Shown here one piece after another: positions 9,296-48,634 of a DNA stretch of 64,000 nucleotides. The stretch covers positions 1,865,245 to 1,929,244 of the forward strand of contig OZ244822.1 in NCBI GenBank assembly GCA_965220345.1. Reading direction: 5' to 3'. The translations under genes were made by a program, and so were the position numbers. This DNA comes from Candidatus Aldehydirespirator sp. (GTDB lineage Bacteria; Actinomycetota; Acidimicrobiia; Acidimicrobiales; Aldehydirespiratoraceae). Numbering within the stretch: position 1 is the stretch's first letter; every line of letters starts with the position of its first letter. Below the pieces are notes generated by a model, which was not told where the DNA came from, made no database searches, and saw nothing but the letters and a program-made list of their open reading frames with translations.

Positions 9296-10689
9296 AGTGC
9301 AGGCACCGCAACCTCGGCGGTTATGGCATCGGGCATTGACGACAGGTAGCCGAGCACGTCGGTGCTGGAGATAACCGCTCGCGGTCGGCCTCCATCCAGC
9401 ACCAGCAGAGCGGGAGAGCGTTCCAGCTTGGCCACGGCTAGAGCAATTGGCTCGCCTATACCGATCTGTGCCAGCGGTGGACTCATCACGTTCTCCACCG
9501 GCTGGCTCAGCAGGTCGCCTTCAAAAGCCATAGACATCAGCCGAAGTTCGTGCAGTGATCCCATCACCTCAGCCGCTGCCAGCGGCATCTCGCCTTTAGC
9601 CACCGGGAGCTGGCTCAATCCGTTTTCGCTCATGCGGGTGACGGCCAAGCTCACCGGGTCATCGGGGTTGACGTAGATGAGCGACGGCAGCGTGTCCTGT
9701 TTGGCATCAAGCACATCCTTGATGCATGGGTGATCGCAGATCAAGAACCCGTGAGAAGCCATCCAGGCGTTGTCGAAGACTTTAGAGAGATAACCGCGCC
9801 CAGAGTCGGGCAGCAGCACCACGATCACGTCGTTGGGGTCACAGCCTTGAGCCAGTTCGGCGGCTGCACACATGGCCGTCCCACCTGATCCGCCGATCAG
9901 TAGCCCCTCGCGATGCGATACCAGCCGAGCCATGTCAAACGACGCTTGATCAGACACAGCGATCACTTGATCCACCATCTCGGGGTGATAAGTCTCGGGC
10001 CAGAAGTCCTCACCGATCCCTTCCACGAGATAAGGCCGGCCCGAGCCTCCACTGAACACTGAGCCTTCGGGGTCGGCTGCCACGATCCGCACTGAGGGTT
10101 TCTGGCTTTTGAGGTATCGACCGACACCGCTCAAGGTGCCACCGGTGCCTGCGCCTGCCACGAAGTGGGTGATCCGCCCGCTTGTCTGGTGCCACAGCTC
10201 GGGCCCGGTGGTCTGCTCGTGGGCGAGAGGGTTGGTCTGGTTGAAGTACTGGTTGGGGCGGTAGGCACCAGGGATTTCGCGCATTAAGCGCTCAGCGGTG
10301 GAGTAGTAGGAGTCAGGTTCGTCGGGAGCGACCGCGACCGGGCACACCACCACCTCGGCACCGTGAGCCCGCAGCAACTGAACCTTCTCGGCGCTGACTT
10401 TGTCGGTCATCACGAAGACGCAGCGGTAGCCGCGCTGAGCTGCCACCAAAGCCAAGCCGACACCAGTGTTGCCAGATGTGGGTTCAACAATGGTGCCGCC
10501 AGGTTTGAGCCGTCCGTCCCGCTCGGCAGCGTCAATCATTGCGATAGCCGCTCGGTCCTTGACGCTGCCGCCAGGGTTGAGCATCTCTAGTTTGGCCAGC
10601 ACCTCACAGCGGGCATCGCTGACGGCTCGCCGCATCCGCACTAGCGGCGTGTTACCTATGAGGTCGAGTACGGAGTCAGCGACCTCCAT
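9292..10689 (-). CDS. cbs: cystathionine beta-synthase (PALP domain plus tandem CBS domains)
   Basis: Contains IGNTPLVRM and NPGGSVKDRAA (PLP lysine), plus a C-terminal CBS pair. ATG at 10689 (MEVADSVLDL) was chosen. The track ORF extends 65 codons further through a low-complexity region. Confidence 0.85.
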   Translation of the reverse strand: MEVADSVLDLIGNTPLVRMRRAVSDARCEVLAKLEMLNPGGSVKDRAAIAMIDAAERDGRLKPGGTIVEPTSGNTGVGLALVAAQRGYRCVFVMTDKVSAEKVQLLRAHGAEVVVCPVAVAPDEPDSYYSTAERLMREIPGAYRPNQYFNQTNPLAHEQTTGPELWHQTSGRITHFVAGAGTGGTLSGVGRYLKSQKPSVRIVAADPEGSVFSGGSGRPYLVEGIGEDFWPETYHPEMVDQVIAVSDQASFDMARLVSHREGLLIGGSGGTAMCAAAELAQGCDPNDVIVVLLPDSGRGYLSKVFDNAWMASHGFLICDHPCIKDVLDAKQDTLPSLIYVNPDDPVSLAVTRMSENGLSQLPVAKGEMPLAAAEVMGSLHELRLMSMAFEGDLLSQPVENVMSPPLAQIGIGEPIALAVAKLERSPALLVLDGGRPRAVISSTDVLGYLSSMPDAITAEVAVPAL

Positions 10690-21423: not shown

Positions 21424-21966
21424 TTGGCGATTACAGCTACAGGGTTAGCTACCGCAAGCATCTCTGATGCACAACCTCCATCATTAGTTGACGATACACC
21501 TTCACTAGAAGATATTAATCTTGGAACTAGTGGCACGCTTGGTGATGAAATGAATCCAGCTGACAGCAAAACTAGCGCACCTGAAAGCAGTAGTGCTCAA
21601 CAAAATAGTACGATACAACCGTTCGTTAGGCGAGGCTTAGGGTGTGACTTGCGACTAGACGACATTCATGCATCGCGCCATGTTCCAGGAAATATGAATG
21701 TAGTATTCACAGTCTCCTGCCCACTATCGCTTCCTGAACTCCATATTGAAGCTCAGCTTTGGGAAGTTAGATGGTGGGGATGGGACCGAATTGGAATCAG
21801 AGGAACTGAGAGTCGCTATAATGCTAGCTATGCACAGACAAACGCTAGTGATAGGTGTAGAAACAACCGTATCCGTGCAACCGCTAACGGCTATGGCATA
21901 CATTTTGGAATGCGTTATGAAGGTCCGGAACAACGCAGATATGCAAACAATCCATGTAATCTTTGA
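21424..21966 (+). CDS. hypothetical secreted protein (possibly disrupted; see finding)
   Basis: Track ORF with TTG start, in an AT-rich islet. An upstream in-frame GTG at 21382 with RBS GGAAGGAG is separated from it by a single TAA at 21403-21405. Confidence 0.5.
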   Translation: MAITATGLATASISDAQPPSLVDDTPSLEDINLGTSGTLGDEMNPADSKTSAPESSSAQQNSTIQPFVRRGLGCDLRLDDIHASRHVPGNMNVVFTVSCPLSLPELHIEAQLWEVRWWGWDRIGIRGTESRYNASYAQTNASDRCRNNRIRATANGYGIHFGMRYEGPEQRRYANNPCNL

Positions 21967-33970: not shown

Positions 33971-35218
33971 CTACTGAAGTATGCCGATGTCGCCTTCGGT
34001 GATGCCCAACTCTGCCCATGACGGTTCCAGCGCCGCACGCACCGCGTCGCCGAAACCGTTGACACCCGGGGGATTAGACAGATCAAAAATCGCGTTCATA
34101 GCTTCAGCATCGGCACCGACAGGAACCAGGTAGGCCTCGACAACCCGCCAGAACGCCAAGCCTTCAGCCTGATGTTCTTTGGCTTTTGCGTCGTTGCCGT
34201 CGGCTAGGTCACCTTCAATGAGGCTGGCGTAACGGATCGCAGCTTGTGAATAGGTGATCGCCACGTTGCGCAGCGCCTGATCTGCTGCGTCCGCGGCAGC
34301 GGCAGCGTCAGAGTCAAGCAGTGCATCACGGCCTGCGATCATGGCAGCCAGAATTGCTTCGTTGGCCAGCGCAGTCTCGCCGTCGCTGCCGGTGGTTGCG
34401 AAGTTAGCGGCACGTTTGTTAGCAGTGGCGTAAGGAGCGCAACCTGGCTCGATGCCGTGATAGAAAGCCCACGCCTCGTCCCAGTTATGCACAGCGCCGC
34501 TGTCTACGTTGAAATCTCCGTTGGATGCCTTGTCAAGAGCTGTGTTCAGCTCGTGAACTACCCAGGCCACCATCACTTGGTTCTGGATGCCCTTTTCGGT
34601 GCCCTGGGCACGCACCGCGTTGCTTTGCCCAGCGAAAATGCCGGTGCCTTCGAGCGCGTTTGTGACGAACTCATCAAGCACTCCCGGTGTGCCGTAGTAA
34701 GCATCAAGGCCGTGTTGGCGGTCGTCTCGGCTAGCGAACCCGGCGATGGTACGGATTGAGCCGTCGCTGTTGACCGAGTTCCCGCCGTTGCGGTAGATGT
34801 CAGCAACGGCCTGGAAGTCGGCTGCGTCAAGCAGGTCGCCTATACCGCAAATGTCGGCAACCACGCGTCGATGCGCGTCTACATTGGAGGCGTATTCGTA
34901 GCCGCCATCAGCGCCGTGATCTGTCGAAGCCTCTTCTGTGCCTGAAGCACTAGCCGAAGCAGTCGCAGAACCCGGTGTGGACGCTGAAGCCGAGGCCGAT
35001 CCCGATGCAGATCCCGAGGCCGAAGCCGATGCAGATCCTGAGGCTGAGCCGCTTGCAGATGCCGAGATTGACTCCGAGCCAGAGTTGAGCGCTCGGACTT
35101 CGGCACCATCGTCATCACTGCTGCAACTCGCAATGACTATCGCCAAAGCTACAACAGCGACTAAAGCAGTGGTCACCGCCAGACGGTTGCGCCGACTGTG
35201 GGCAAAGAAGCGTTTCAT
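33971..35218 (-). CDS. secreted lipoprotein of unknown function
   Basis: Signal LAIVIASC|SSDDD, then a long (S-A-S-G)n repeat, then a ~300-aa globular region. No family recognised. Confidence 0.6.
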   Translation of the reverse strand: MKRFFAHSRRNRLAVTTALVAVVALAIVIASCSSDDDGAEVRALNSGSESISASASGSASGSASASASGSASGSASASASTPGSATASASASGTEEASTDHGADGGYEYASNVDAHRRVVADICGIGDLLDAADFQAVADIYRNGGNSVNSDGSIRTIAGFASRDDRQHGLDAYYGTPGVLDEFVTNALEGTGIFAGQSNAVRAQGTEKGIQNQVMVAWVVHELNTALDKASNGDFNVDSGAVHNWDEAWAFYHGIEPGCAPYATANKRAANFATTGSDGETALANEAILAAMIAGRDALLDSDAAAAADAADQALRNVAITYSQAAIRYASLIEGDLADGNDAKAKEHQAEGLAFWRVVEAYLVPVGADAEAMNAIFDLSNPPGVNGFGDAVRAALEPSWAELGITEGDIGILQ

Positions 35219-35288
35219 TCAGAATCCTTTCGTTTACTCCCAGCAGGTCAGCCATATTTTGGATAACCCTTACCTAAGAACTTATGAT

Positions 35289-35300
35289 AAGTATACCTAA
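35289..35300. promoter_or_regulatory. diverged copy of the TTAGGTATACC motif upstream of the lipoprotein gene
   Basis: Reverse strand reads gTTAGGTATACtt. A second TTAGGTAagg lies 21 nt away (reverse of cccttacctaag at about 35267-35278). Confidence 0.4.
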
Positions 35301-35342
35301 CACAACTAGCGGCTGTGGGCAACCTGCACTTTGATTTCATGA

Positions 35343-37073
35343 TCATGTGGCTGAGTTGAGCTGCCGATACACCGCAGGCACAACGTTTCGCAGGTAGCAG
35401 CCCAATTTCACGAAGCTATGTCCAGTGGTGCGGAAGCTGTAACTGATGGGAACCTCTGCGTAGCGATACCCCTTAGCCAGCAGATCAAGGGTCAGCACTT
35501 GTGCATAGTTGTAGTCGTGGATGATTACAGCGTTAGCGGCAGCACTCAGCGAAAAAGCGCGATAACCCGACTGCCCGTCGCTGATGCGGTGACGTGCCAC
35601 CAGCGACAGCAACCGAGTGAGGATCAGATTCCCGAGGCGGCGATGCGGCCGCATGTGACGGATCTCGCCAATGAAGCGACTGCCCACCACATAGTCGGCC
35701 TGACCCGCGAGTATCGGTTCGATCAGGGTCTGCAGCTCTTCGGGAGGGTATTCACCGTCGGCATCACAGAAAGCCACCGCAACAGCCTTGCGTTCGACAC
35801 CCGCTGCCAGCCCTACCCTCACTGCGGCTCCCAGCCCACGATTGCAATCCAAGCTAATCACCTCGGCACCTGCTGACTTGGCCTGTGCAGCAGTGTCATC
35901 AACTGAGCCGTCGTCTATCACCAGAACTTGAACCCGATGGCCTAGCAACTCAGCAGGAGCGCGTCGCACACAGCCGCCAACAGAGTCTTCTTCGTTGTGA
36001 GCTGGCATGAACAACACGACCGGCCCGTCAAGTGGCGATCTCGCAGGGTCCCAAGGCTCTCCAGTTCTCCCAGCGCTCTCTGTGCTTTCAGATGTCTGCG
36101 TCTTCGCAGACCGCTGACGCGCAAGTCGGGGACTGCTAACAGGCTTCAAACGGAGTCGGCCCGCCAAGCTGGGACTCGGAACAAGTAGCGCCACGACACC
36201 CGCTGCTAGCGAGTAGGCGGTCTTGAGGCCGTGTGCCAAAAGCGCAGCCACTAGCGCACCACCCGCGTCGTAGCCCAGAGCTGCGTAGGCACCAACCGCA
36301 GCGGCTTCATAAGTGCCGAAACCTCCTGGAGCAATCGCTGCAAGCTGTGCCGTAACCGATACCGCTGTCACCCCCAGAGCGTGCAGGTAACTGATGTCCA
36401 GACCAGCCCAATGCGCTGCTTGCCAAACCAGAACCGCTTCCGCTGGCCAAGCAGTTGCCGACAGTAGCAACGTCGTCACGTCGGGCACTCTCACCTCGCT
36501 GCGCTGCTGAGCTAGTCGTCGCAACCACAGCCAGGCCGCCACCGCCATCACGGCAAACACCGCCAGAACCAGCTGAGCACCCCAGCCAGCGAGATGCGTC
36601 AAAGCGGCTGGCACCGCCAAAAACCCCAACCCAACCACTGCTACCAGATCGACCGAACGCAACGCCACCACCGAAGCCGTCGCAGCCTCAAGGCTCACCC
36701 CAGCACGACGCACCACACTCACGACCCTCAAAGGCTCGCCGAGACGCAGCGGTAGCAAATGATTGCCGCCCAAAGCCAAATGAATCCCGCCGAGGCTCTG
36801 TGAAAAGCTCAACCCCGGCACGATCCGCTGCCAGGCCACCGCTCGCAGCACGAACGCCAGACCGAAACAGCCCAGCGCGGCAGTCACTCCAAGCGGCTGA
36901 CCTTGAGCTGTTCGCACAGCACGCTCCAGAGCCGCAGTGTCAAGACCTGCGATCACCGCTGCTGTAGCCAAGACTGTGACTCCCACCACCAGCGCCACCG
37001 CAGCACGGCGGGACAGCCGTTTCGTCAGTGTCCGCACCGAAATCGAACGCAGCCTGCGAGCTATCAAATCCAT
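35343..37073 (-). CDS. fusion protein: flippase-like (LPG-synthase-TM/UPF0104) membrane domain plus family-2 glycosyltransferase
   Basis: The N-terminal ~300 aa are polytopic. The C-terminal part has VVLFMPAHNEEDSV...VIDDGSVDDT...DADGEY, a GT2 (DPM1-like) signature. Confidence 0.75.
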   Translation of the reverse strand: MDLIARRLRSISVRTLTKRLSRRAAVALVVGVTVLATAAVIAGLDTAALERAVRTAQGQPLGVTAALGCFGLAFVLRAVAWQRIVPGLSFSQSLGGIHLALGGNHLLPLRLGEPLRVVSVVRRAGVSLEAATASVVALRSVDLVAVVGLGFLAVPAALTHLAGWGAQLVLAVFAVMAVAAWLWLRRLAQQRSEVRVPDVTTLLLSATAWPAEAVLVWQAAHWAGLDISYLHALGVTAVSVTAQLAAIAPGGFGTYEAAAVGAYAALGYDAGGALVAALLAHGLKTAYSLAAGVVALLVPSPSLAGRLRLKPVSSPRLARQRSAKTQTSESTESAGRTGEPWDPARSPLDGPVVLFMPAHNEEDSVGGCVRRAPAELLGHRVQVLVIDDGSVDDTAAQAKSAGAEVISLDCNRGLGAAVRVGLAAGVERKAVAVAFCDADGEYPPEELQTLIEPILAGQADYVVGSRFIGEIRHMRPHRRLGNLILTRLLSLVARHRISDGQSGYRAFSLSAAANAVIIHDYNYAQVLTLDLLAKGYRYAEVPISYSFRTTGHSFVKLGCYLRNVVPAVYRQLNSAT

Positions 37074-37098
37074 AACGCCACAAGAGGATAATCGAAAG

Positions 37099-37113
37099 TT
37101 AGGTATACCTTAC
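37099..37113. promoter_or_regulatory. palindromic motif TTAGGTATACCTTAC in the divergent promoter region (GT2 fusion gene / iron-binding protein gene)
   Basis: Identical 15-mer also at 42403-42417. The core AGGTATACCT is a perfect palindrome. Confidence 0.55.
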
Positions 37114-37146
37114 GATCTTCGCAAACCTCGGCTATAGTTCTGGGTT

Positions 37147-38226
37147 ATGACAGGACGAATGATTGCCTCCAAGACGATTGCTGTGACTTTGGCTCTGCTG
37201 CTAATCGCCGGGGCCTGCGGGCAGGAGGAACGCTCTCTTGACGGCATCGCAGCCGATATCTACAGCGGCAACTGTGTCTCCTCAAATGGTCGTGAGGTGA
37301 CGGTCTACTCGGGCCGCACCGAGAACTTGATCGGCCCGACACTTGAGGCGTTCGCTTGTGAGACCGGCACCGACGTAGCGGTGCGCTGGGGGAGTTCCAC
37401 CGACCTAGCGCTGTTGATGGCCGAAGAAGGTGACCGCACAGCCGCAGACGTGTTCTTGTCGCGCTCGCCTGGTCCTGTGGGATTTTTGGAAAGCGACAAC
37501 CTGCTTGGTGTCATAGATGACTCGGTGCTTGATCTGGTTGCGCCTCAGAGCCGTTCGCAGACCGGCACTTGGGTCGGTTTCTCGGGACGCAAACGGGTTC
37601 TGGTTCACAACATCGACACTGTGACCGGTGACGACTTGCCGCAGTCGGTGTTTGATCTCACCGATGACCGTTACCGAGGACGGGTAGCCATCCCAGCCAC
37701 CAACGGCTCGTTTATCGACTGGTTCACAGTGTTTCGTGATCTCTACGGCAATGAAACAGCCGAGCAATGGCTCAACGACATGGTCGACAATGACGCTCGC
37801 TTCTATCCCAACAACCGCTCAATCGTTGAGGCTGCTGGGCGCGGTGAGATCGACATGGGCCTGGTTAACCATTACTACCAGTATCAAGCTGTAGCAGCTT
37901 CTGGCGACAGTCACCGTGCCGCCAACCACGACCTCGCCGACGACGACATCGGCTCGCTGCTGATCATCACCGCGGCCACGATCACCGCTGGCAGCGACAA
38001 CCAGCAAGCAGCCAACGAGTTGATCGCTTATCTGCTTTCGGAGCCGGTGCAGCGATATTTCAGCGAACGCACCTTCGAGTATCCGCTGGCGGCTGGGGTT
38101 GAGCCAGCCGAGATCTTGCCGCCGTTGGAGGCACTCGAGATCGGCAGCGTCGACTTCGACGCTCTCGGCGGCGGTTTCGAGCAGAGCACAATCATCATCG
38201 AACGAAGCGGGATCTACAACCAGTAG
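37147..38226 (+). CDS. iron(III)-type ABC transporter substrate-binding lipoprotein (FbpA/AfuA-like)
   Basis: Signal LLLIAGAC|GQEE. VTVYSGRTENLIGP... and the overall family-1 SBP pattern. Followed by a fused-type iron permease. Confidence 0.78.
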   Translation: MTGRMIASKTIAVTLALLLIAGACGQEERSLDGIAADIYSGNCVSSNGREVTVYSGRTENLIGPTLEAFACETGTDVAVRWGSSTDLALLMAEEGDRTAADVFLSRSPGPVGFLESDNLLGVIDDSVLDLVAPQSRSQTGTWVGFSGRKRVLVHNIDTVTGDDLPQSVFDLTDDRYRGRVAIPATNGSFIDWFTVFRDLYGNETAEQWLNDMVDNDARFYPNNRSIVEAAGRGEIDMGLVNHYYQYQAVAASGDSHRAANHDLADDDIGSLLIITAATITAGSDNQQAANELIAYLLSEPVQRYFSERTFEYPLAAGVEPAEILPPLEALEIGSVDFDALGGGFEQSTIIIERSGIYNQ

Positions 38227-38273
38227 AAGTAGGCGTAGTCCCTTCGTCGGCGCTGTGCAGTATCAGGTATGAC

Positions 38274-39926
38274 GTGGTGAGCAGTCAAACCTTGAGGCAT
38301 CCTCAAGCCGTGACCGCCGCCTCAGCCCAGATGTCTCGCCAGCCGGGTACGCCCGTCACTTTGAGGTTGCTGGGTCTGGCTTTGGCCGGAGCTTTTGCCT
38401 TCCCAGGGGCGTATCTGGTTTACCGGAACTTCGCTGCTGGTGCAGATCCTGCGGGTTTGCTCATCAGCGACCGCACCGCTGGCCCGTTGTGGCGTTCACT
38501 GCAACTGGCGGTGTCGGTGTCAGCAGCGTCGCTGCTGCTGGGCACTGCTCTGGCTTGGCTCACCAGCCGCACCGATCTCCCGTTTTTGCGGCTCTGGCGG
38601 ATCTTGATGCCTTTGCCGTTGGTGTTTCCCACTTTCGTGGGTGCCGCAGCGTTCATTCACGCTCTCAACCCTGGCGGTTTGGTCAATGACCTGCTGACCG
38701 GGATCGGAGTTGATCGAACACCGGAACTGCGCGGCTTTCGCGGGGCTTGGCTGGTTCTCACGCTGATGACCTATCCCTACGTGTATCTGCCTGTAGCAGC
38801 ACGGCTGCGGCAGTTGCCTGCCACCCTCGAAGAAAGCGCCCGAGTGCTCGGCGACACCGCGGTCAGGGTTTTCTGGCGGATTTGCCTACCGCAAACAGCT
38901 TCCGCTATGGGAGCGGGCACTTTGCTGGTTTTTCTCTACACACTCAGCGACTTCGGCGCGGTGCAGTTGATGCGCTATGACACGCTCACCCGAGCGATCG
39001 CCACCAACCAGCTGGCTAATCCTCCGGTTGCTTTGGCGCTGAGCCTGATCCTTTTGGTGCTGGCCGCTTTGGTGGTGGTTGGTGAGCGCGGCTTTTCGCA
39101 GCGACTACCTGATGCGGCCTCGGGTCGCTCTAGGCATCCGATGATCTACCGACTGGGCCGTTGGCGCGCTGTTGCGACCGGTTTCGTTGCCGTGACAGCA
39201 GCAGCCGCTGCTGGGGCACCTCTGGTGGCATTAGGGGACTGGGCAGCAAGAGGTCTCATCCGCTCCGCCACCGGCGAACGCGAACTCACCATTGATTTTC
39301 CCCAGGTGTATGAAGCCACTATTAACACTGTCGGGGTCAGCGTGGCTGCGGCGCTGGTGTCCACCGCGGCGGTGCTTCCCATAGCTTTGCTGGTTGGTCG
39401 CTACCGCTCACGAGCTGGATCATTCGCGCATGCGCTGGTGATCAGCACTTTCGCTCTTCCCGGCATTCTCATTGCGCTTTCGATGCGGTTCTGGACGTTA
39501 CGTTCCGATCTTGCTTTCGAGCTTTTGAACGACACTATGGCGCTTTTGATCTTCGCTTACATGGTGCGTTTTGGATCGCTGGCTATGGGAGTGACTTTGG
39601 TGGCGGTGCGGGGAGTGCCTCAAAGACTGCACGACTCGGCGCAGATTCTTGGTGCCGGACGGTTGCGTCGTTTCGCGGCGGTGGATTTGCCGATGATGGC
39701 ACCCGGTCTGCTTGCAGGTGTTGGCCTAGTGCTGTTGTCAGTAATGAAAGAACTGCCGATCAGCCTGTTCGTGTCGCCGCTGGGATTTTCGACTCTGGCC
39801 ACCCGAATCTTCAGTTCCTTTGAAGACGCTTTCATAGCTGAGGCTGGGATCATGGCTGTAATTTTGGTGGCGCTTTCGCTCGTGTTGACCTGGTTTCTGG
39901 TGATTCGGCGAGATCATCTGCTGTGA
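38274..39926 (+). CDS. iron ABC transporter permease (duplicated TMD, FbpB-like)
   Basis: 550 aa with about 12 TM helices and two EAA-like loops (LEESARVLGDT; LHDSAQILGAG). No ATPase gene follows. Confidence 0.85.
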   Translation: MVSSQTLRHPQAVTAASAQMSRQPGTPVTLRLLGLALAGAFAFPGAYLVYRNFAAGADPAGLLISDRTAGPLWRSLQLAVSVSAASLLLGTALAWLTSRTDLPFLRLWRILMPLPLVFPTFVGAAAFIHALNPGGLVNDLLTGIGVDRTPELRGFRGAWLVLTLMTYPYVYLPVAARLRQLPATLEESARVLGDTAVRVFWRICLPQTASAMGAGTLLVFLYTLSDFGAVQLMRYDTLTRAIATNQLANPPVALALSLILLVLAALVVVGERGFSQRLPDAASGRSRHPMIYRLGRWRAVATGFVAVTAAAAAGAPLVALGDWAARGLIRSATGERELTIDFPQVYEATINTVGVSVAAALVSTAAVLPIALLVGRYRSRAGSFAHALVISTFALPGILIALSMRFWTLRSDLAFELLNDTMALLIFAYMVRFGSLAMGVTLVAVRGVPQRLHDSAQILGAGRLRRFAAVDLPMMAPGLLAGVGLVLLSVMKELPISLFVSPLGFSTLATRIFSSFEDAFIAEAGIMAVILVALSLVLTWFLVIRRDHLL

Positions 39927-39945
39927 GGTTTCTGGTGGTTAGACC

Positions 39946-41475
39946 TTGTTGGTGAGCCAGCAACCAGAAGGGCAGACCTCGTTAGCGACTCCTGCAAAGC
40001 TTGGGTTGGCTATGGCCGCGGTGGCGCTTTGGGTCTTCGTCATAGCCCTGCCTGCTATTGGTGCCCGGGCCAGCTACGGCGCTCGGGTGACAGCCGATGA
40101 GCCCCAATATTTGATCACCGCTATCAGCATCGCTGAAGACTTCGATCTCGACATCAGTGATGAACTCGCCGAGCGGCGATTCGAGCCTTTTCACGAGATA
40201 AACCTGAACCCGCAGACGATCCCGCTTAACGAGTCTGGACGGCGCATCAGTCCACATGATCCGCTGCTGCCTGCGCTGCTAGCACTGCCGATGTTGGTAG
40301 GGGGCTGGGTCGCAGCCAAGGTCGCATTAGCAGCAACTGCCGCAGCAACAGCCGCAGCAACTGTGTGGCTAGCGGTGCGGCGCTTCGGTGTGTCCGCAGG
40401 TGTCGCCGCGCTAGTGATTGGAGCTTTCTTCGCGGCACCGCCTTTGACGAGTTACGCCACGCAGGTTTATCCAGAGATGCCCGCAGCGCTTTGCGTGACT
40501 TTGGGTCTTGCGGCAGTCACCGGGCCGTTGCGGTTTCGTGGTCGGGTTGTGGCGCTTGCTGTCATTGTGGCTCTGCCATGGCTGTCAGTAAAGTTTGTGC
40601 CGCTAGCAGCAGTGCTTACGGTTGTGATGGTGCTGCGGCTGTGGCCGGATCAGCGACAGCGACAGCAGCTTCTGTTCAACTTTGCTGTGCTGACACTCGC
40701 TGGTGTGGCATACCTGGCTTTTCATCGCAGTGTCTACGGAGGCTGGACCGCTTATGCAAGTGGCGACCATTTCGTCAACGGTGAGCTGCTGGTGTTCGGA
40801 TCAGATCCTGACTATCTGGGACGCAGCCGTCGTCTGATGGGATTGCTCATAGATCGCGGTTTCGGTTTGGCGGCTTGGAACCCTGCTTATCTGCTGGCTG
40901 TGCCAGCGCTTGTGGCTTTAGCTCGCAGGCGACCGCCCGGCTGGGCTGTTCTGCTGGGCACATTCTCAGTGGGATATGCCATGGCAACCTGGGCAGCGTT
41001 GACTATGCATGGCTGGTGGTGGCCTGGTCGACAGGTGGTGGTGATGCTGCCCATAGTGGTGACAGCAGCAGCAATGCTTGTTGAACGTTTCCGAGTTTTG
41101 CGCCTACCGCTTCTGGTGGGATGCTGTGTAGGGGTTTTCAACTGGCTGTGGCTTGTCGCCGAGGCTTCCACTGGGCGGCGCACCCTGATCGTGGATTTTG
41201 AAGAGACCGCGAACCCTCTGTATCAGGTTTGGTCGGTGCTGCTGCCAGATCATCGACGCTTTGAGGGTGCCTCTGTGGCTTTGACCCTTGCTTGGACTGC
41301 TCTGATTGCAGCAGCGGCTCTGCTGGTGTGGCTCAGACTGCGGCCGTCACCCGCTGAGGCTGCCGAAGGGTTATCGCCGGGTCATGGTCTCGACCGGCGG
41401 ATTGAGCTTGAGCCTGAGCCTTCCAGTTTTGTTGATGCCACAAAGCCTGGGCCGTCAAACCGCGGCTCAGATTAG
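39946..41475 (+). CDS. polytopic membrane protein, possibly a GT-C-type glycosyltransferase
   Basis: About 12 TM helices, with an early acidic loop (EDFDLDISDE) as in ArnT/PMT-like enzymes. Assignment is tentative. Confidence 0.5.
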   Translation: MLVSQQPEGQTSLATPAKLGLAMAAVALWVFVIALPAIGARASYGARVTADEPQYLITAISIAEDFDLDISDELAERRFEPFHEINLNPQTIPLNESGRRISPHDPLLPALLALPMLVGGWVAAKVALAATAAATAAATVWLAVRRFGVSAGVAALVIGAFFAAPPLTSYATQVYPEMPAALCVTLGLAAVTGPLRFRGRVVALAVIVALPWLSVKFVPLAAVLTVVMVLRLWPDQRQRQQLLFNFAVLTLAGVAYLAFHRSVYGGWTAYASGDHFVNGELLVFGSDPDYLGRSRRLMGLLIDRGFGLAAWNPAYLLAVPALVALARRRPPGWAVLLGTFSVGYAMATWAALTMHGWWWPGRQVVVMLPIVVTAAAMLVERFRVLRLPLLVGCCVGVFNWLWLVAEASTGRRTLIVDFEETANPLYQVWSVLLPDHRRFEGASVALTLAWTALIAAAALLVWLRLRPSPAEAAEGLSPGHGLDRRIELEPEPSSFVDATKPGPSNRGSD

Positions 41476-42403
41476 TAAGGGGTCTCCAGCCCAGAACTCG
41501 GCGAGCTTCGCCAATATCGGCGACAGTTGTCTGCGGGTCACCTGCTGGTTGCGGCACTTCACGGATGCTCGCCTGTGCGCCGCTCAGCGCTGAAACTTCG
41601 GCGATTACCTCATTGAGTGAATGGCTGCAGCCGCCGCCGATATCGAAAGTCCTGCCCGCCGCTCGCTGTTCAGTCCCCGCAGCGAGCGTCGCCGCCACAA
41701 CATCACCCACGAACGTGAACTCGCGTGTCTGCTCACCGGAGCCGCGACGACAAAAAACCGCTGCCTTTGGCCTGGTCGCCTCAAAAAGGCGATGCATGGC
41801 CATGTCGGGACGCTGACGAGGACCGAACACGGTGAAGTAGCGCAGCACCACCACTTCAAGACCACGGCGGGCATAAACATCCGCAAGTTGCTCGCAAGCT
41901 GCTTTGGCGGCACCATATGGGCTTATCGGTTTGAGGGTTCTGGTTCCGTCCAGGGTTGCGGTCTCGCCGTAGACCGACGAACTTGATGCCAGCACTAGGC
42001 GTTTCACCCCGGCTTCCAGAGCTGCCGACAGAACCGCTTGCGTGCCTGCCACATTGACATCGCATTGCTCGCAGGATTGCCATGAGTCCTGCACCCCGGC
42101 CTGAGCTGCTAGGTGATACACAGTGTCAGCCCCGCTAAACAACCCGACAAGATTGGCGCAGCGAATATCGTCAACCATCAACCGGAACCGAGGGCTTTTG
42201 ACTGCTTCGCTGAGGTTGGCCCGCTTCTGTGCAGTGCTGTATCCGCTAGCAAAAGAGTCCAATCCGGTCACCTTGTGTTGATGGCGGAGCAGCAGATCAA
42301 CAAGATGCGAACCGATGAAGCCAGCCGCTCCAGTCACTACCGTGATGCCGTCGCTTGCCTCTGCGCTAGCTTCGGTGTATTCGCCTGGCAATATAGTATG
42401 CAT
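41333..42403 (-). CDS. NAD-dependent epimerase/dehydratase (SDR-extended)
   Basis: VTGAAGFIGSHLV and YGAAK motifs. ATG at 42403 (MHTILPG) was preferred over the track start at 42451. The 3' end overlaps the convergent gene by 143 nt. Confidence 0.85.
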   Translation of the reverse strand: MHTILPGEYTEASAEASDGITVVTGAAGFIGSHLVDLLLRHQHKVTGLDSFASGYSTAQKRANLSEAVKSPRFRLMVDDIRCANLVGLFSGADTVYHLAAQAGVQDSWQSCEQCDVNVAGTQAVLSAALEAGVKRLVLASSSSVYGETATLDGTRTLKPISPYGAAKAACEQLADVYARRGLEVVVLRYFTVFGPRQRPDMAMHRLFEATRPKAAVFCRRGSGEQTREFTFVGDVVAATLAAGTEQRAAGRTFDIGGGCSHSLNEVIAEVSALSGAQASIREVPQPAGDPQTTVADIGEARRVLGWRPLTNLSRGLTAQALWHQQNWKAQAQAQSAGRDHDPAITLRQPQRVTAAV

Positions 42404-42417
42404 TAGGTATACCTTAC
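42403..42417. promoter_or_regulatory. second exact copy of TTAGGTATACCTTAC
   Basis: Overlaps the epimerase start codon and lies in the divergent region with the FAD oxidoreductase gene (start 42531). Confidence 0.55.
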
Positions 42418-42530
42418 ACATAGGTTGGCTCCTTGCGAAACCGCACCACAATCACAGGTTCAGGATTCATGACCCATCAGTGTTTCTGCACTAAGTAGCT
42501 GAGATAACTGATAGCTGACGGCTGAGATAA

Positions 42531-43943
42531 ATGGCTGAGATAGTTGTAGTTGGGGCAGGCCCGGCTGGTCTCATGGCTGCGTTGTGCAGCGCCCAAAGCG
42601 GTCATCGCGTCATTCTTTTGGAGGCGACGGACAGTGTCGGGGGAATGTCCGCCAGCTTTGAGATTGCTGGACAGCGAGTGGATTATGGATCGCATCGCCT
42701 TCATCCAGCCACTCCGCAGCGTTTCATGGAGTTGTTTGAATCACGTCTTGGCTCTGATCTGCAGGTGAGGCCGCGTCAGGGGCGGATATTCCTTAGGGGA
42801 AGCTGGATCAAATTCCCGTTGCGGGCTACAGACATGACTCGCAACCTGCCTCCAGCCTTCGCGGCGGGCGCTGCTTTTGATGTCTTGACTGCTCCGCTGC
42901 GGCGGCTCAAGGATCATCCGACCGAGAGTTTTGTTACTGAGATCAAGCATCGGCTAGGCCCCACCGTGGCCCGGGATTTCTACGAGCCCTATGCCCGCAA
43001 GCTCTACGGCTGCGACCCCAAAAACCTTGACCGTGAACTGGCTTTGCGCAGAGTGTCGGTCACCAGCATCGCCGACATCTTGAAACGAGTCTCCGGTGCC
43101 TCAAAGACAAAGACGAGCAGCTTTTGGTATCCGCGTCGTGGCTACGGCCAGCTCAGCGAAGCACTCGCCGGTGCCGCCACCGAAGCTGGTGCTGAACTGC
43201 GGCTCGGAACCCGAGTGCTAGGACTCGAAATCGGTTCAAGCACCGTGTCGGTTCATGCAGATAACAGCGGCGACAGCGGCACGAGTGACATTCTTCAAGC
43301 CGACTCGGTGCTGACGACGATGCCGTTGCCAGCTTTAGCCGCAGCTACTGATCCGTCACCACCTGATGCTGTGCTGACGGCTTTGAGTCGCTGTCGCAGC
43401 CGTGCGCTGGTGCTGGTGTATCTAGTGCTTGGTTGTGAGCAGTTCACGCCATGGGACGCTCACTATTTTCCGGGTCCCGAAACTGTGATCTCACGTTTGT
43501 CAGAGCCGAAGAACTACCGCGACGGTGATGATCCGACAGCTACCACGGTGCTTTGTGCTGAGATCCCCTGCTGGGTCGGTGATGAAATATGGCAACGCAG
43601 CGATGACAGCCTCGCTCAGCAAGTAATAGCCGAAATGGCCGCAGTCGGTCTTGAGGGTGCAGAGCCGCAACAGGTGCAGGTGAGGCGGCTGCCGTCGGTG
43701 TATCCCGTCTATGAAAAATCGTCGATGAACGCTCGAACAACCGTTGACGCGTGGCTGCGTTCGCTTGCCAGCGAAGGCATCTTGTCGTTGGGGCGTCACG
43801 GTCTTGGAGTGCTCGACAATCTGCATCATGTTCTGGCTATGGGCGAAGCAGCGGCGCAGTGCGTCAGTCTCGACGGCACGGTCGATCTTCAAGCCTGGAT
43901 CAATCATCTCGACAATTTCGCAGACCATGTAGTGGAGGACTGA
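42531..43943 (+). CDS. FAD-dependent oxidoreductase (amine oxidase / protoporphyrinogen oxidase-like fold)
   Basis: N-terminal dinucleotide-binding motif VVVGAGPAGLMAA...LLEATDSVGG. Confidence 0.75.
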   Translation: MAEIVVVGAGPAGLMAALCSAQSGHRVILLEATDSVGGMSASFEIAGQRVDYGSHRLHPATPQRFMELFESRLGSDLQVRPRQGRIFLRGSWIKFPLRATDMTRNLPPAFAAGAAFDVLTAPLRRLKDHPTESFVTEIKHRLGPTVARDFYEPYARKLYGCDPKNLDRELALRRVSVTSIADILKRVSGASKTKTSSFWYPRRGYGQLSEALAGAATEAGAELRLGTRVLGLEIGSSTVSVHADNSGDSGTSDILQADSVLTTMPLPALAAATDPSPPDAVLTALSRCRSRALVLVYLVLGCEQFTPWDAHYFPGPETVISRLSEPKNYRDGDDPTATTVLCAEIPCWVGDEIWQRSDDSLAQQVIAEMAAVGLEGAEPQQVQVRRLPSVYPVYEKSSMNARTTVDAWLRSLASEGILSLGRHGLGVLDNLHHVLAMGEAAAQCVSLDGTVDLQAWINHLDNFADHVVED

Positions 43944-43999
43944 GCCCCGAGATGCACAAGATGGTCTGCGTAGAGTCGGAATCGGTTAGGGTTGGTGCC

Positions 44000-44470
44000 A
44001 TGAAAGGTTCCCCAGAAATCATTGAGTTCCTCAACGAGGCTTTGGCCGCTGAGGTAACTGCCATCAACCAGTATTTTGTCAACTCCAAACTTTGTGAAGA
44101 TTGGGGCTGGACTCGTCTGGCTGCCAAAATGCGCGAAGAGTCCATTGAGGAGATGCATGATGCCGAGAAGTTGATGGACCGGATCCTCTACCTTGACGGG
44201 ATGCCGAAACTCGAAAGCCTTGCCAGTATGCGTGCTGGAGGCACGGTAGAAGAGCAGCTCGAGAACGACAGACAGCTTGAGACTGCCGCTATTGAGCGTT
44301 ACCGCCGTGGTGTGCTGCTAGCTACCCAACACGAAGATGTAGGTACCCGTGACTTGCTCGAAGGGCTGCTAGTCGGCGAGGAAGGTCATCTCGACTGGAT
44401 CGAGACCCAGCAGAGCGCCATAGCTGACATAGGCATCCAGAACTATCTCCAGTCCCAAATAGGCGACTAA
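44000..44470 (+). CDS. bfr: bacterioferritin
   Basis: MKGSPEIIEFLNEALAAEVTAINQYF...ESIEEMHDAEKLMDRILYLDG is canonical Bfr, including the heme Met region and ferroxidase ligands. The track ORF is over-extended 5'. Confidence 0.92.
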   Translation: MKGSPEIIEFLNEALAAEVTAINQYFVNSKLCEDWGWTRLAAKMREESIEEMHDAEKLMDRILYLDGMPKLESLASMRAGGTVEEQLENDRQLETAAIERYRRGVLLATQHEDVGTRDLLEGLLVGEEGHLDWIETQQSAIADIGIQNYLQSQIGD

Positions 44471-47578: not shown

Positions 47579-48634
47579 TCAGGGAACTACGGTTAGTTCG
47601 GTGGCTTTTAGCGAAGCCCAGACCTGTAAACCAGGTCGCAAGCCGAGTTCGTCTGCGGATCGGCGGGTCACTTCGGCAAGAACGTCTGCTGGACCCGTCA
47701 GATGCACGCGGGCTCTCTCCCCATCGGTGTCAACCCGCTGCACTACACCCTGCCAGGTGTTGCGGGCGCTGCCCGCTGGCTGGGAATCATGCAAGGTCAC
47801 AGCGTGCGCGGCAAAGGTCACTATGACATCGCCGGATGCTTCCTCAGCGATGGTCAACACCAGTCCCGCAGCGGTGGTGACTGAAGTTCCCTTAGCGTGT
47901 CCGGTCATCACGTTGGCACCCAAAAACGCGGCCGCCCATTCGCAGCCGGGTGCTGCGGTCACCTCGGCTAATGATCCCTGGCTGACCACACTGCCCGCAT
48001 CTAGAACCACCACAGTCTGAGCCAGCGTGGCGACATCCACAGGATCATGAGTAATCAGGATCGTGTGCCTCGCCGCCGACTCGCCCAGCAAGCCACGCAA
48101 CTGCGCCCGACCCGAAGAATCCACCGCTGCGAGCGGCTCATCCACGATCAGCACATCGGGTTCGACTGCTAAAGCTCGGGCTAGTGCCACCCGCTGGCAT
48201 TGCCCCCCAGACAAAACATCAGGCCGCTTCTGCCAGGCACTCGGATCCAAGCCCACCCGCTCCAGTGTTTCCGATGCTCGGCTGCGAGCGCGGCGACGAT
48301 CAACCCCATAGCGCCGCAAACCGAAAGCCACGTTGTCGATCGCTTTAAGATGCCCGAAGAGCCGGTAGTCCTGAAACACCATGCCTACTGAACGCGACTC
48401 GGCAGGCACAAACACACCTGCTTCAGGATCATCAACGACAGTCCCGTCTATGAGCAGACGACCTCGGCGCAGACGATCAAGCCCAGCCAATGCTCGCCCC
48501 AAGCTGGTCTTGCCAGCACCGTTAGCTCCGATCACAGCAGTAACGCCTTCGCCGATTTCTACCCGCTCGGCTAGCAGTGCCCAGCCTGGGCGTGCCAGCT
48601 CGCCGTCAAGTTCGACGGTCATCTTGGTGTCCAA
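47579..48634 (-). CDS. modC: molybdate ABC transporter ATP-binding protein with C-terminal TOBE/Mop domain
   Basis: Walker A GANGAGKT, signature LSGGQCQRVALARAL, Walker B LIVDEP and a C-terminal TOBE-like segment. Follows modA and modB. Confidence 0.88.
   Translation of the reverse strand: MDTKMTVELDGELARPGWALLAERVEIGEGVTAVIGANGAGKTSLGRALAGLDRLRRGRLLIDGTVVDDPEAGVFVPAESRSVGMVFQDYRLFGHLKAIDNVAFGLRRYGVDRRRARSRASETLERVGLDPSAWQKRPDVLSGGQCQRVALARALAVEPDVLIVDEPLAAVDSSGRAQLRGLLGESAARHTILITHDPVDVATLAQTVVVLDAGSVVSQGSLAEVTAAPGCEWAAAFLGANVMTGHAKGTSVTTAAGLVLTIAEEASGDVIVTFAAHAVTLHDSQPAGSARNTWQGVVQRVDTDGERARVHLTGPADVLAEVTRRSADELGLRPGLQVWASLKATELTVVP
47591..47626. repeat. 36-bp direct repeat, copy B (inside the modC 3' end)
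   Basis: Exact match to 45240-45275. Confidence 0.95.

Follow-up and report, generated by a model that had tools for sequence, protein, structure and literature searches.

The DNA analysed here, which we call the window, is a stretch of 64,000 nucleotides of Candidatus Aldehydirespirator sp. (Acidimicrobiia; contig OZ244822.1, positions 1,865,245 to 1,929,244), in which genes for ferric-iron uptake are interleaved with genes for envelope glycans and three promoters carry copies of one short inverted repeat. Judged by its sequence, this motif is probably the operator of a metal-dependent repressor of the DtxR/IdeR family and is predicted to be read by a single dimer. The genes and sites concerned are, in order of position (operators A, B and C being putative):

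33971–35218, minus strand: gene of an FEA1-related lipoprotein (low-iron-inducible periplasmic protein family; Pfam Fea1, E = 4e-24)
35273–35277, minus strand: extra TTAGG pentamer, 23 bp downstream of the TTAGG of operator C
35286–35301, minus strand: operator C, GTTAGGTATACTTATC, upstream of the FEA1-related lipoprotein gene
35343–37073, minus strand: fusion of a flippase-like membrane domain (LPG_synthase_TM) and a glycosyltransferase family 2 (GT2) domain, the latter resembling polyprenyl-phosphate sugar synthases
37098–37113: operator A, GTTAGGTATACCTTAC, within the 73 bp that separate the divergent genes for GT2-flippase and ferric-binding protein
37109–37114, plus strand: CTTACG, which resembles a -35 hexamer and belongs to the binding-protein promoter; it coincides with positions 12–17 of operator A
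37133–37138, plus strand: -10 hexamer TATAGT, 8 nt before the binding-protein ATG at 37147
37147–38226, plus strand: ferric-iron-binding protein of an ATP-binding cassette (ABC) importer, of FbpA/HitA/SfuA type by Pfam families and PDB matches
38274–39926, plus strand: fused two-domain ABC permease
40012–41475, plus strand: polytopic membrane protein of glycosyltransferase C (GT-C) fold, in the transporter operon
41333–42403, minus strand: NAD-dependent sugar epimerase/dehydratase (GalE-like), apparently leaderless
42402–42417: operator B, ATTAGGTATACCTTAC, the minus strand reading GTAAGGTATACCTAAT-G
42531–43943, plus strand: FAD-dependent oxidoreductase of amine-oxidase fold with weak likeness to UDP-galactopyranose mutase, divergent from the epimerase gene
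44000–44470, plus strand: bacterioferritin

The exact 15-mer TTAGGTATACCTTAC was found by a search of the window at 37099–37113 and again at 42403–42417, where the first-pass annotation of this DNA had placed it. Identity between the two copies is confined to these 15 bp, the flanks being aaagT...Cgatc in one case and tgcaT...Cacat in the other, and a third, degenerate copy, GTTAGGTATACTTATC, lies on the minus strand at 35286–35301. When up to 3 mismatches to TTAGGTATACCTTAC were allowed, 6 strand-hits at 3 places were obtained against 0.24 expected from shuffled sequences, a number attained in none of the 100 shuffles. The three copies fall within 7 kb, and no further copy of the 15-mer was found elsewhere in the 64-kb window; candidate sites at 624 and at 21625, with 2 mismatches each and the second inside an open reading frame (ORF), were set aside as apparently due to chance. 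Site 1 sits between the GT2-fusion gene and the binding-protein gene, while site 2 overlaps the epimerase ATG (42403–42401) and precedes the FAD oxidoreductase gene by 113 nt; this gene context, including bacterioferritin at 44000, had been described correctly from the start. The copies at the third site had been noticed as well, but with coordinates about 1 nt off, and the second cTTAGGTAagg reported there is indeed present on the minus strand (35268–35278), but at a TTAGG-to-TTAGG spacing of 23 nt and not 21. This extra pentamer after operator C is kept in relatives as CTTAGG or CTTAAG, and may mark the transcription-start region or represent an additional half-site.

Species-representative genomes were scanned with the binding protein, which yielded 68 loci at 65–90% identity, all from uncultured Acidimicrobiia and many of them sponge-associated (Candidatus Aldehydirespirator, Candidatus Poriferisodalis). 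In most of these loci the binding-protein gene is at position 10001 with 10-kb flanks, and the related sequence scanned in all amounts to ~2 Mb of loci. Of the 68 orthologous loci, 67 have the site ahead of the binding-protein gene, as does the window. In the logo of these sites, positions 1–6 read GTTAGG at 1.6–2.0 bits each and positions 11–16 read C[T/C]T[T/G]AC at 1.0–2.0 bits, with 0.10–0.75 bits at the central 4 positions and mostly uninformative flanks (at most 0.93 bits). GTTAGG itself is 97–100% invariant and lies 5 bp upstream of the -35 element. The conserved unit is GTTAGG-N4-CCTTAC, that is, two inverted pentamers 4 bp apart around a freely variable centre; the TATA of the centre is a trait of the window species, and in close relatives the two sites differ from each other at this place. 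The two window sites are therefore identical because both happen to carry a TATA centre, and the perfect palindrome AGGTATACCT to which attention had been drawn at first is present in the window, yet its central 4 bp vary among the 68 orthologous sites.

Two further classes of site were recognised in the same loci. At the epimerase start codon, ATTAGG-N4-CCTTAC recurs in 20 loci besides the window, with a variable centre in which only position 10 is invariably A, corresponding to the last T of TAAGGT on the other strand. Upstream of the FEA1 gene, the form GTTAGG-N4-CCTA(C/T)T, ending in CCTACT or CCTATT, was seen in ~15 loci, and it also occupies the intergenic region between FEA1 and an ATPase gene in two distant loci (L065 and L067). 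The centre is variable in both classes, and the epimerase- and FEA1-class sites have opposite orientations relative to their genes, as expected for a symmetric dimer site. A scan of 1.4 Mb with up to 2 mismatches gave 118 matches, ~104 of which belong to the three promoter classes, and the background is therefore low. At one binding-protein promoter (L106, 9392–9423) two half sites directly adjoin, GTTAGGCTTGCTTAAT being followed by ATTAAGCATGCCTAAC, which hints at the use of a pair of neighbouring dimers in some lineages.

Crystal structures of IdeR from Saccharopolyspora erythraea on the 19-bp box show four CCTAA repeats (PMC8464063), and each dimer contacts repeats 1 and 3 or repeats 2 and 4 (PMC8464063; PMC10317159). 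A 14-bp "half binding site", TTAGGNNNNCCTAA, was bound in vitro by one dimer with a dissociation constant (KD) of ~78 nM (PMC8464063, Marcos-Torres et al. 2021), TTAGGNNNNCCTAA being the consensus put forward for such sites, and a natural half site was found at the nuo promoter of the same species (PMC8464063). The window sites at 37099 and 42403 match 9 of the 10 specified bases of TTAGGNNNNCCTAA, several relatives match all 10, and the arrangement of two inverted CCTAA repeats around a free 4-bp spacer was found in the window sites and the 68 orthologues, located at promoters on the -35, on the -10/start codon and on the -10. Moreover, of the five positions of a repeat only three are contacted by IdeR in a base-specific manner, and a natural target with T for A at repeat position 4 is still bound (PMC8464063), a tolerance that fits the CCTTA half of the window sites. 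The motif had at first been described as the outer heptamers of the iron box abutted without its central pentamer, with an altered spacing of the half-sites. Abutted heptamers are geometrically the same object as the half site, though the TATA at their junction is not conserved; the idea of an altered spacing had to be given up, TTAGG-N4-CCTAA being the native spacing of repeats 1 and 3 or 2 and 4 for one IdeR dimer. It is the second, overlapping dimer site that is absent. The 19-bp iron box TTAGGTTAGSCTAACCTAA, searched with up to 3 mismatches, occurs neither in the window nor anywhere in 1.54 Mb (window and 75 loci), and the logo of the binding-protein sites has no conservation at the would-be repeats 2 and 4 and no signature of a second dimer; a canonical two-dimer box is ruled out by these empty searches of window and loci.

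The Acidimicrobiia sites thus share with the half site of S. erythraea the inverted CCTAA/TTAGG pentamers and the non-specific 4-bp spacer. Whereas half sites are exceptional in S. erythraea beside full 19-bp boxes, here the half site is the sole form seen, clade-wide and on the -35 and -10 elements of iron-uptake genes; it is also longer, 16 instead of 14 bp, owing to a conserved G and C at its flanks, and its presumed binder belongs to a divergent DtxR subfamily. With the classical DtxR/IdeR box TTAGGTTAGSCTAACCTAA, occupied by two dimers on opposite faces, the sites have in common the pentamers, the iron-uptake targets, the overlap with promoters and the regulator family, but they lack the second overlapping dimer site and their central 4 bp are unconstrained.

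The position of the sites relative to the core promoter is equally regular. At the binding-protein promoters the -35 element occupies site positions 12–17, as TTTACA in 17, TTGACA in 14, TTTACG in 13 and CTTACA in 8 sites, with a spacer of 17–18 bp to the -10. A TANNNT -10 hexamer is present in 67 of the 68 binding-protein sites (TATAGT in 49), and the ATG follows it after 7–8 nt in 63 of 67, which implies a leaderless mRNA. In a consensus promoter scan one relative (L030) reached 11 of 12 matches with TTGACA-17-TATAGT, while the -35 of the window itself is weak, with 3 of 6 consensus matches. In front of the epimerase gene the minus-strand sequence is GTAAGGT-ATACCTA-ATG, in which the half-site supplies a -10-like TAAGGT 7 nt before the ATG, and the right half of operator C merges into a -10-like TATCAT (TACTAT or TATTAT in relatives), which judging by its sequence is presumably the -10 of the FEA1 gene. 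At each of the three promoters, then, one half of the site is pure (GTTAGG) and the other is shared with an element of RNA polymerase. The non-palindromic T at position 14 of CCTTAC is explained by this overlap of the right half with the -35 or -10 hexamer, and a protein bound there would be well placed to block RNA polymerase.

Some smaller features of these promoters may be mentioned as well. Leaderless starts are apparently the rule in the cluster, as TANNNT stands 7–8 nt before the ATG of the binding-protein, epimerase and bacterioferritin genes (37147, 42403 and 44000) and the same layout is seen at dtxR in relatives (L074, 10001). Between the -35 and the -10 of the binding-protein promoter lies an element G(C/G)AAAC (e.g. 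TCGCAAAC) at 37120–37126 and at the same position in loci L001–L068, its G at logo position 24 carrying 1.5 bits; GCGAAAC, which resembles it, is also found at 42434–42440, ~18 nt past operator B. In addition, three copies of GCTGAGATA(A) stand between operator B and the start of the FAD-oxidoreductase gene (42498–42542), the last of which falls in the ATG GCT GAG ATA beginning of that gene. The spacer in question measures 113 nt in the window and ~38 nt in close relatives (e.g. L010), and the repeat-bearing part looks like a local duplication or insertion.

A gene for a DtxR-family protein lies within the cluster in five relatives (L065–L067 and L070/L071), in which it is the only transcription-factor gene seen. 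L065–L067, which are the most distant of the loci, have it in one transcription unit with the epimerase gene, behind a promoter that bears the motif; in the case of L067 the dtxR gene overlaps the epimerase stop codon and the epimerase promoter carries GTTAGGCATTCCTTAC. In L070/L071, both on Tara Oceans contigs, an epimerase-dtxR operon adjoins the transporter. The L067 cluster contains every gene of the window cluster plus an ABC ATPase, in the order FEA1, site, ATPase-FAD oxidoreductase, GT2, site, binding protein-permease-475-aa protein, DtxR-epimerase, site. In other lineages (L072–L075, 9371–10672) dtxR comes directly after secY-adk in the ribosomal-protein cluster and is followed by a two-component system; no motif was found upstream of dtxR in this arrangement, nor in L069.

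The association was also seen from the side of the regulator, in 80 metagenome loci (474 kb) chosen solely by their DtxR-like protein. In these, the 14-mer with up to 1 mismatch occurs 35 times, 14 of them perfect, against 7.75 expected from shuffled sequences (~4.5-fold). The matches are distributed over the binding-protein/GT2 divergent promoters (7 loci), the epimerase/FAD-oxidoreductase divergent promoters (6 independent loci), positions 34–89 bp ahead of the regulator's own gene (4 loci) and, in marine lineages, the upstream region of an uncharacterised protein of ~195 aa (10 loci), and this enrichment ties the motif to the regulator family and to a recurrent regulon. The gene of the ~195-aa protein, which has no Pfam match, adjoins dtxR and is preceded at ~90–155 nt by a perfect ATTAGG-N4-CCTAAC (L099, 7277–7420; likewise L100, L112, L115, L116, L121, L123, L125, L130 and L144); it is a candidate for a new regulon member. 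In L135 and L140 a lipoprotein of ~160 aa, also without a family match, takes the same role.

The L067 protein matches PF01325 (Fe_dep_repress, 2.7e-12), PF02742 (Fe_dep_repr_C, 2.1e-28) and FeoA (1.6e-4), so that the winged helix and the metal-binding dimerisation domain of the DtxR family are both present, in the relatives only. The closest PDB matches of the family are IdeR and DtxR (1fx7, E = 7e-37), with MntR far more distant at ~1e-8, and the NCBIfam models for MntR are not passed (42–94 bits against cut-offs of 138–350). Glu105, His106, His79, Glu83 and His98 of IdeR are retained, and its DNA-contacting Ser37 and Pro39 are invariant in 122–123 of the 123 family members. Other metal ligands of IdeR, whose roles have been described and among which the sulfur ligands raise Fe2+ selectivity (PMC10317159), are replaced, and the effector metal can therefore not be read from the family sequence.

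The genes that the sites would control point to iron. All 28 PDB matches of the binding protein are iron-binding proteins (best 7w3w, E = 2e-59), with the Tyr-Tyr motif aligned, and the FEA1-related lipoprotein scores 572.9 bits with NCBIfam NF038033 against a cut-off of 250, so that the iron-related context recognised at first is borne out. Together with the adjacent bacterioferritin gene, these targets favour iron as the effector. Near the N-terminus of the lipoprotein, four tandem 12-nt repeats (34985–35043, minus strand) encode a short repetitive linker. No full operator was found upstream of bacterioferritin, only a conserved GGTTAGGGTGG. The element GGTTAGGGT(T/G)G at 43984–43994, ~7 nt before the bacterioferritin ATG at 44000, is conserved in more than 30 loci and contains a GTTAGG half-site; it is best read as the -10 (TAGGGT) of a leaderless bfr, and a fuller palindrome is found near this position in L012 and L013. 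As for the importer, none of the genes called in the window cluster (35343–44470) was seen to encode an ATPase, while distant relatives have an ABC ATPase (ABC_tran and TOBE_2) within it (L067, 2425–3498; L070, 17896–18981). The only ATPase gene near the cluster in the window, at 47579–48634 (ABC_tran and TOBE), shares an overlap with the permease gene beside it and is therefore likely to be part of another transporter.

The glycan genes of the cluster are less familiar. The GT2 domain of the fusion protein matches AglJ, dolichyl-P-hexose transferase and PpgS, in all cases below the cut-offs. The GT-C protein, encoded by a 509-aa ORF with a called gene of 487 aa and represented in databases by a protein of 100% identity, has ~11 membrane segments and an invariant D-E-P-Q-Y motif in its first loop; neither Pfam nor NCBIfam gave a match, and none of its more than 2000 homologues has a family assignment. 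Its AlphaFold model (predicted local distance difference test, pLDDT, 82.9; predicted template-modelling score, pTM, 0.86) retrieved only GT-C enzymes among the top 24 of a Foldseek search of the PDB, ArnT being the best (E = 3e-4, TM 0.50), followed by ALG9, AglB, EmbA/B, AftB, PimE, Pmt4 and PglB. The C-terminal tail of the protein (residues ~449–487) is predicted to be disordered, and its ORF overlaps that of the convergent epimerase by ~143 bp at the 3' ends (41333–41475). Across Acidimicrobiia, the epimerase, the GT2/flippase-like fusion and the FAD oxidoreductase accompany the iron transporter. Taken together, epimerase, GT2-flippase, GT-C protein and FAD enzyme resemble a whole polyprenyl-phosphate-sugar glycosylation pathway placed under the same operator, for which the FEA1 or binding-protein lipoproteins could be the acceptor. 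With its UDP-sugar epimerase, its GT2 enzyme that resembles a polyprenyl-P-sugar synthase and is fused to a flippase-like domain, and its GT-C transferase, the set recalls modules of ArnC/ArnT type, made up of a GT2 lipid-sugar synthase and a GT-C transferase; it differs from them in that the GT-C protein has no sequence family and is encoded in the operon of an iron ABC importer, and in that regulation apparently relies on a DtxR-type operator rather than on a two-component system.

Taken as the operator of a DtxR/IdeR-family repressor, the functional unit would be a 16-bp imperfect palindrome, GTTAGG-N4-CCT(T/A)AC, with the geometry of one IdeR dimer within the 19-bp box. Its three copies would cover core promoter elements, namely the -35 of the binding-protein operon (binding protein, permease and GT-C glycosyltransferase), the -10/start codon of the epimerase gene and the -10 of the FEA1 gene. 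When metal, most likely Fe2+, is plentiful, the metal-loaded dimer would occupy the sites, block RNA polymerase and keep the cluster off; when metal is scarce, the dimer would be released, and the genes for iron uptake and for the linked polyprenyl-phosphate-sugar glycosylation would come on together. The sequence comparison establishes the motif, its pattern of conservation, its overlap with promoter elements in relatives, its agreement with the published half site and its linkage to DtxR-family genes; in the scheme just given we infer the binding itself, the stoichiometry of one dimer, the direction of repression and the identity of the metal. The co-regulation of iron uptake and envelope glycans, which had been suspected from the beginning, is supported by the recurrence of one type of site before the genes for epimerase and GT2-flippase and before the GT-C operon.

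Several observations weigh against the reading as a DtxR/IdeR-type operator. A tblastn search (IdeR query sequence checked against PDB 1fx7) found no DtxR-, IdeR- or Fur-like gene in the 64-kb window, no DtxR homologue is on the contig bearing the window's GT-C protein among the database matches listed, and the ~20 neighbouring window ORFs scanned contain no transcription-factor domain. The first-pass proposal of a DtxR-like operator is backed by the half-site match and by the linked DtxR gene of the relatives, but not by a regulator gene in the window. Furthermore, the DtxR equivalog model NF053665 is not passed (163.7 bits against a cut-off of 290), and all 123 family members have Glu for Met10, Gly for Cys102, Glu for Gln43 and Ala for Thr40 of IdeR; going by these replacements, metal selectivity and base contacts may differ from those of IdeR. 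IdeR Q43A binds normally in vitro (PMC8464063), and changes in the recognition helix therefore need not alter specificity. The right half-site of the window lineage departs from CCTAA (CCTTA, and CTTAT at the FEA1 site), and at the binding-protein promoters it could be conserved merely as a -35 element. Finally, the three window promoters (binding protein, FEA1, epimerase) were not called by a strict consensus promoter scan, and their assignment therefore rests on alignment with relatives.

Perhaps the same architecture answers to Mn2+ or another divalent metal through an MntR-like sensor, a possibility that we regard as real though rather unlikely. In its favour, Glu is found in all 123 members at the positions of both IdeR Met10 and IdeR Arg13, where MntR has the acidic residues Asp8 and Glu11, and many members are labelled "Mn-dependent" by the Joint Genome Institute (JGI), even though this label is generic. 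The ligand set of MntR (Asp8, Glu11, His77, Glu99, Glu102 and His103) is nonetheless broken in the family, which has Gly at the Glu99-equivalent position, that of IdeR Cys102, where Glu is typical of MntR. The family again resembles MntR in having lost the two sulfur ligands by which Fe2+ selectivity is raised (PMC10317159), yet the ancillary ligands His79, Glu83 and His98, the IdeR site of reported higher Fe2+ affinity, are kept. Unlike MntR, moreover, the family has a C-terminal SH3/FeoA-like domain as IdeR does and is closer to IdeR/DtxR (E ~1e-37) than to MntR (~1e-8), while the transporter under its presumed control has a binding protein of ferric type, with the Tyr-Tyr motif, and not of TroA/MntC type, and the FEA1-related lipoprotein and the adjoining bacterioferritin point to iron as well. 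A regulator of another family (TetR, MarR, GntR, ArsR or similar), with a merely coincidental likeness to the IdeR half-site, is improbable: no regulator gene of any kind was found beside the window sites and many dimeric helix-turn-helix proteins use short palindromes with a 4-bp spacer, but pentamers and spacing are identical to the experimentally defined half-site, the sole regulator seen in the cluster of five relatives is of the DtxR family, and the enrichment was obtained around blindly chosen DtxR-like genes and includes autoregulatory positions.

As regards the direction of control, activation at the binding-protein promoter appears hardly probable. Operator A has its centre 41.5 bp upstream of the ATG at 37147, that is at about -41.5 if this ATG is +1, a class-II position next to a weak -35, and IdeR does activate some genes such as bfrB (PMC10317159). 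On the other hand, the near-consensus TTGACA-17-TATAGT of many relatives needs no activator, the sites over the -10/start codon of the epimerase gene and over the -10 of the FEA1 gene are repressor positions, and iron-uptake genes are classically repressed by holo-DtxR/IdeR. It is very improbable that no dedicated regulator is involved and that the 15-mer identity arose by coincidence from core promoter elements. The right half does coincide with TTGACA, TTTACA or CTTACG, or with -10-like hexamers at the other two sites, and a GTTAGG-containing -10 occurs upstream of bacterioferritin without a full site; nevertheless GTTAGG hardly varies although it stands 5 bp ahead of the -35, outside any sigma-70 element, the inverted pair is found at three promoters in differing -35/-10 registers and in both orientations, and other lineages have a fully palindromic site in front of the regulator gene. 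A dispersed repeat or the remnant of a mobile element, which three copies within 7 kb might bring to mind, has next to no probability, given that only 15–16 bp are common to the copies, that their flanks are unrelated, that the 64 kb contain no others and that they hold orthologous promoter positions across 68 genomes. An RNA element was ruled out too, as no Rfam family matched the motif region.

DtxR/IdeR operators, and the half site among them, were already known; what is newer is the half site as the conserved and apparently exclusive form of operator across a clade. A review of 2023 left open whether half sites are used in other species and what role IdeR has at sites for a single dimer (PMC10317159). 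The half site recurs as a conserved operator on iron-uptake promoters across dozens of uncultured species of Acidimicrobiia, in places where binding would obstruct RNA polymerase; this speaks for a single dimer as a working repressor unit and opens the question to tests on given sequences and a given family of proteins. The analysis further outlines, for the first time, a regulon for the control of iron in Acidimicrobiia of sponges and of the sea, draws attention to a DtxR subfamily whose metal ligands are unusual and brings to light an unannotated GT-C protein that accompanies a ferric ABC importer. More speculatively, and with considerable doubt on our part, an Acidimicrobiia-wide DtxR subfamily (Glu10, Glu13, Gly102, Glu43) might act only via promoter-fused single-dimer half sites of leaderless genes, with one dimer repressing and with ferric-iron import thereby coupled to lipid-linked glycosylation, perhaps of iron-binding lipoproteins under iron starvation. 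If this is true, half sites of IdeR type would gain their first physiological role, and metal limitation would be connected in a new way with the glycosylation of the envelope or of lipoproteins.

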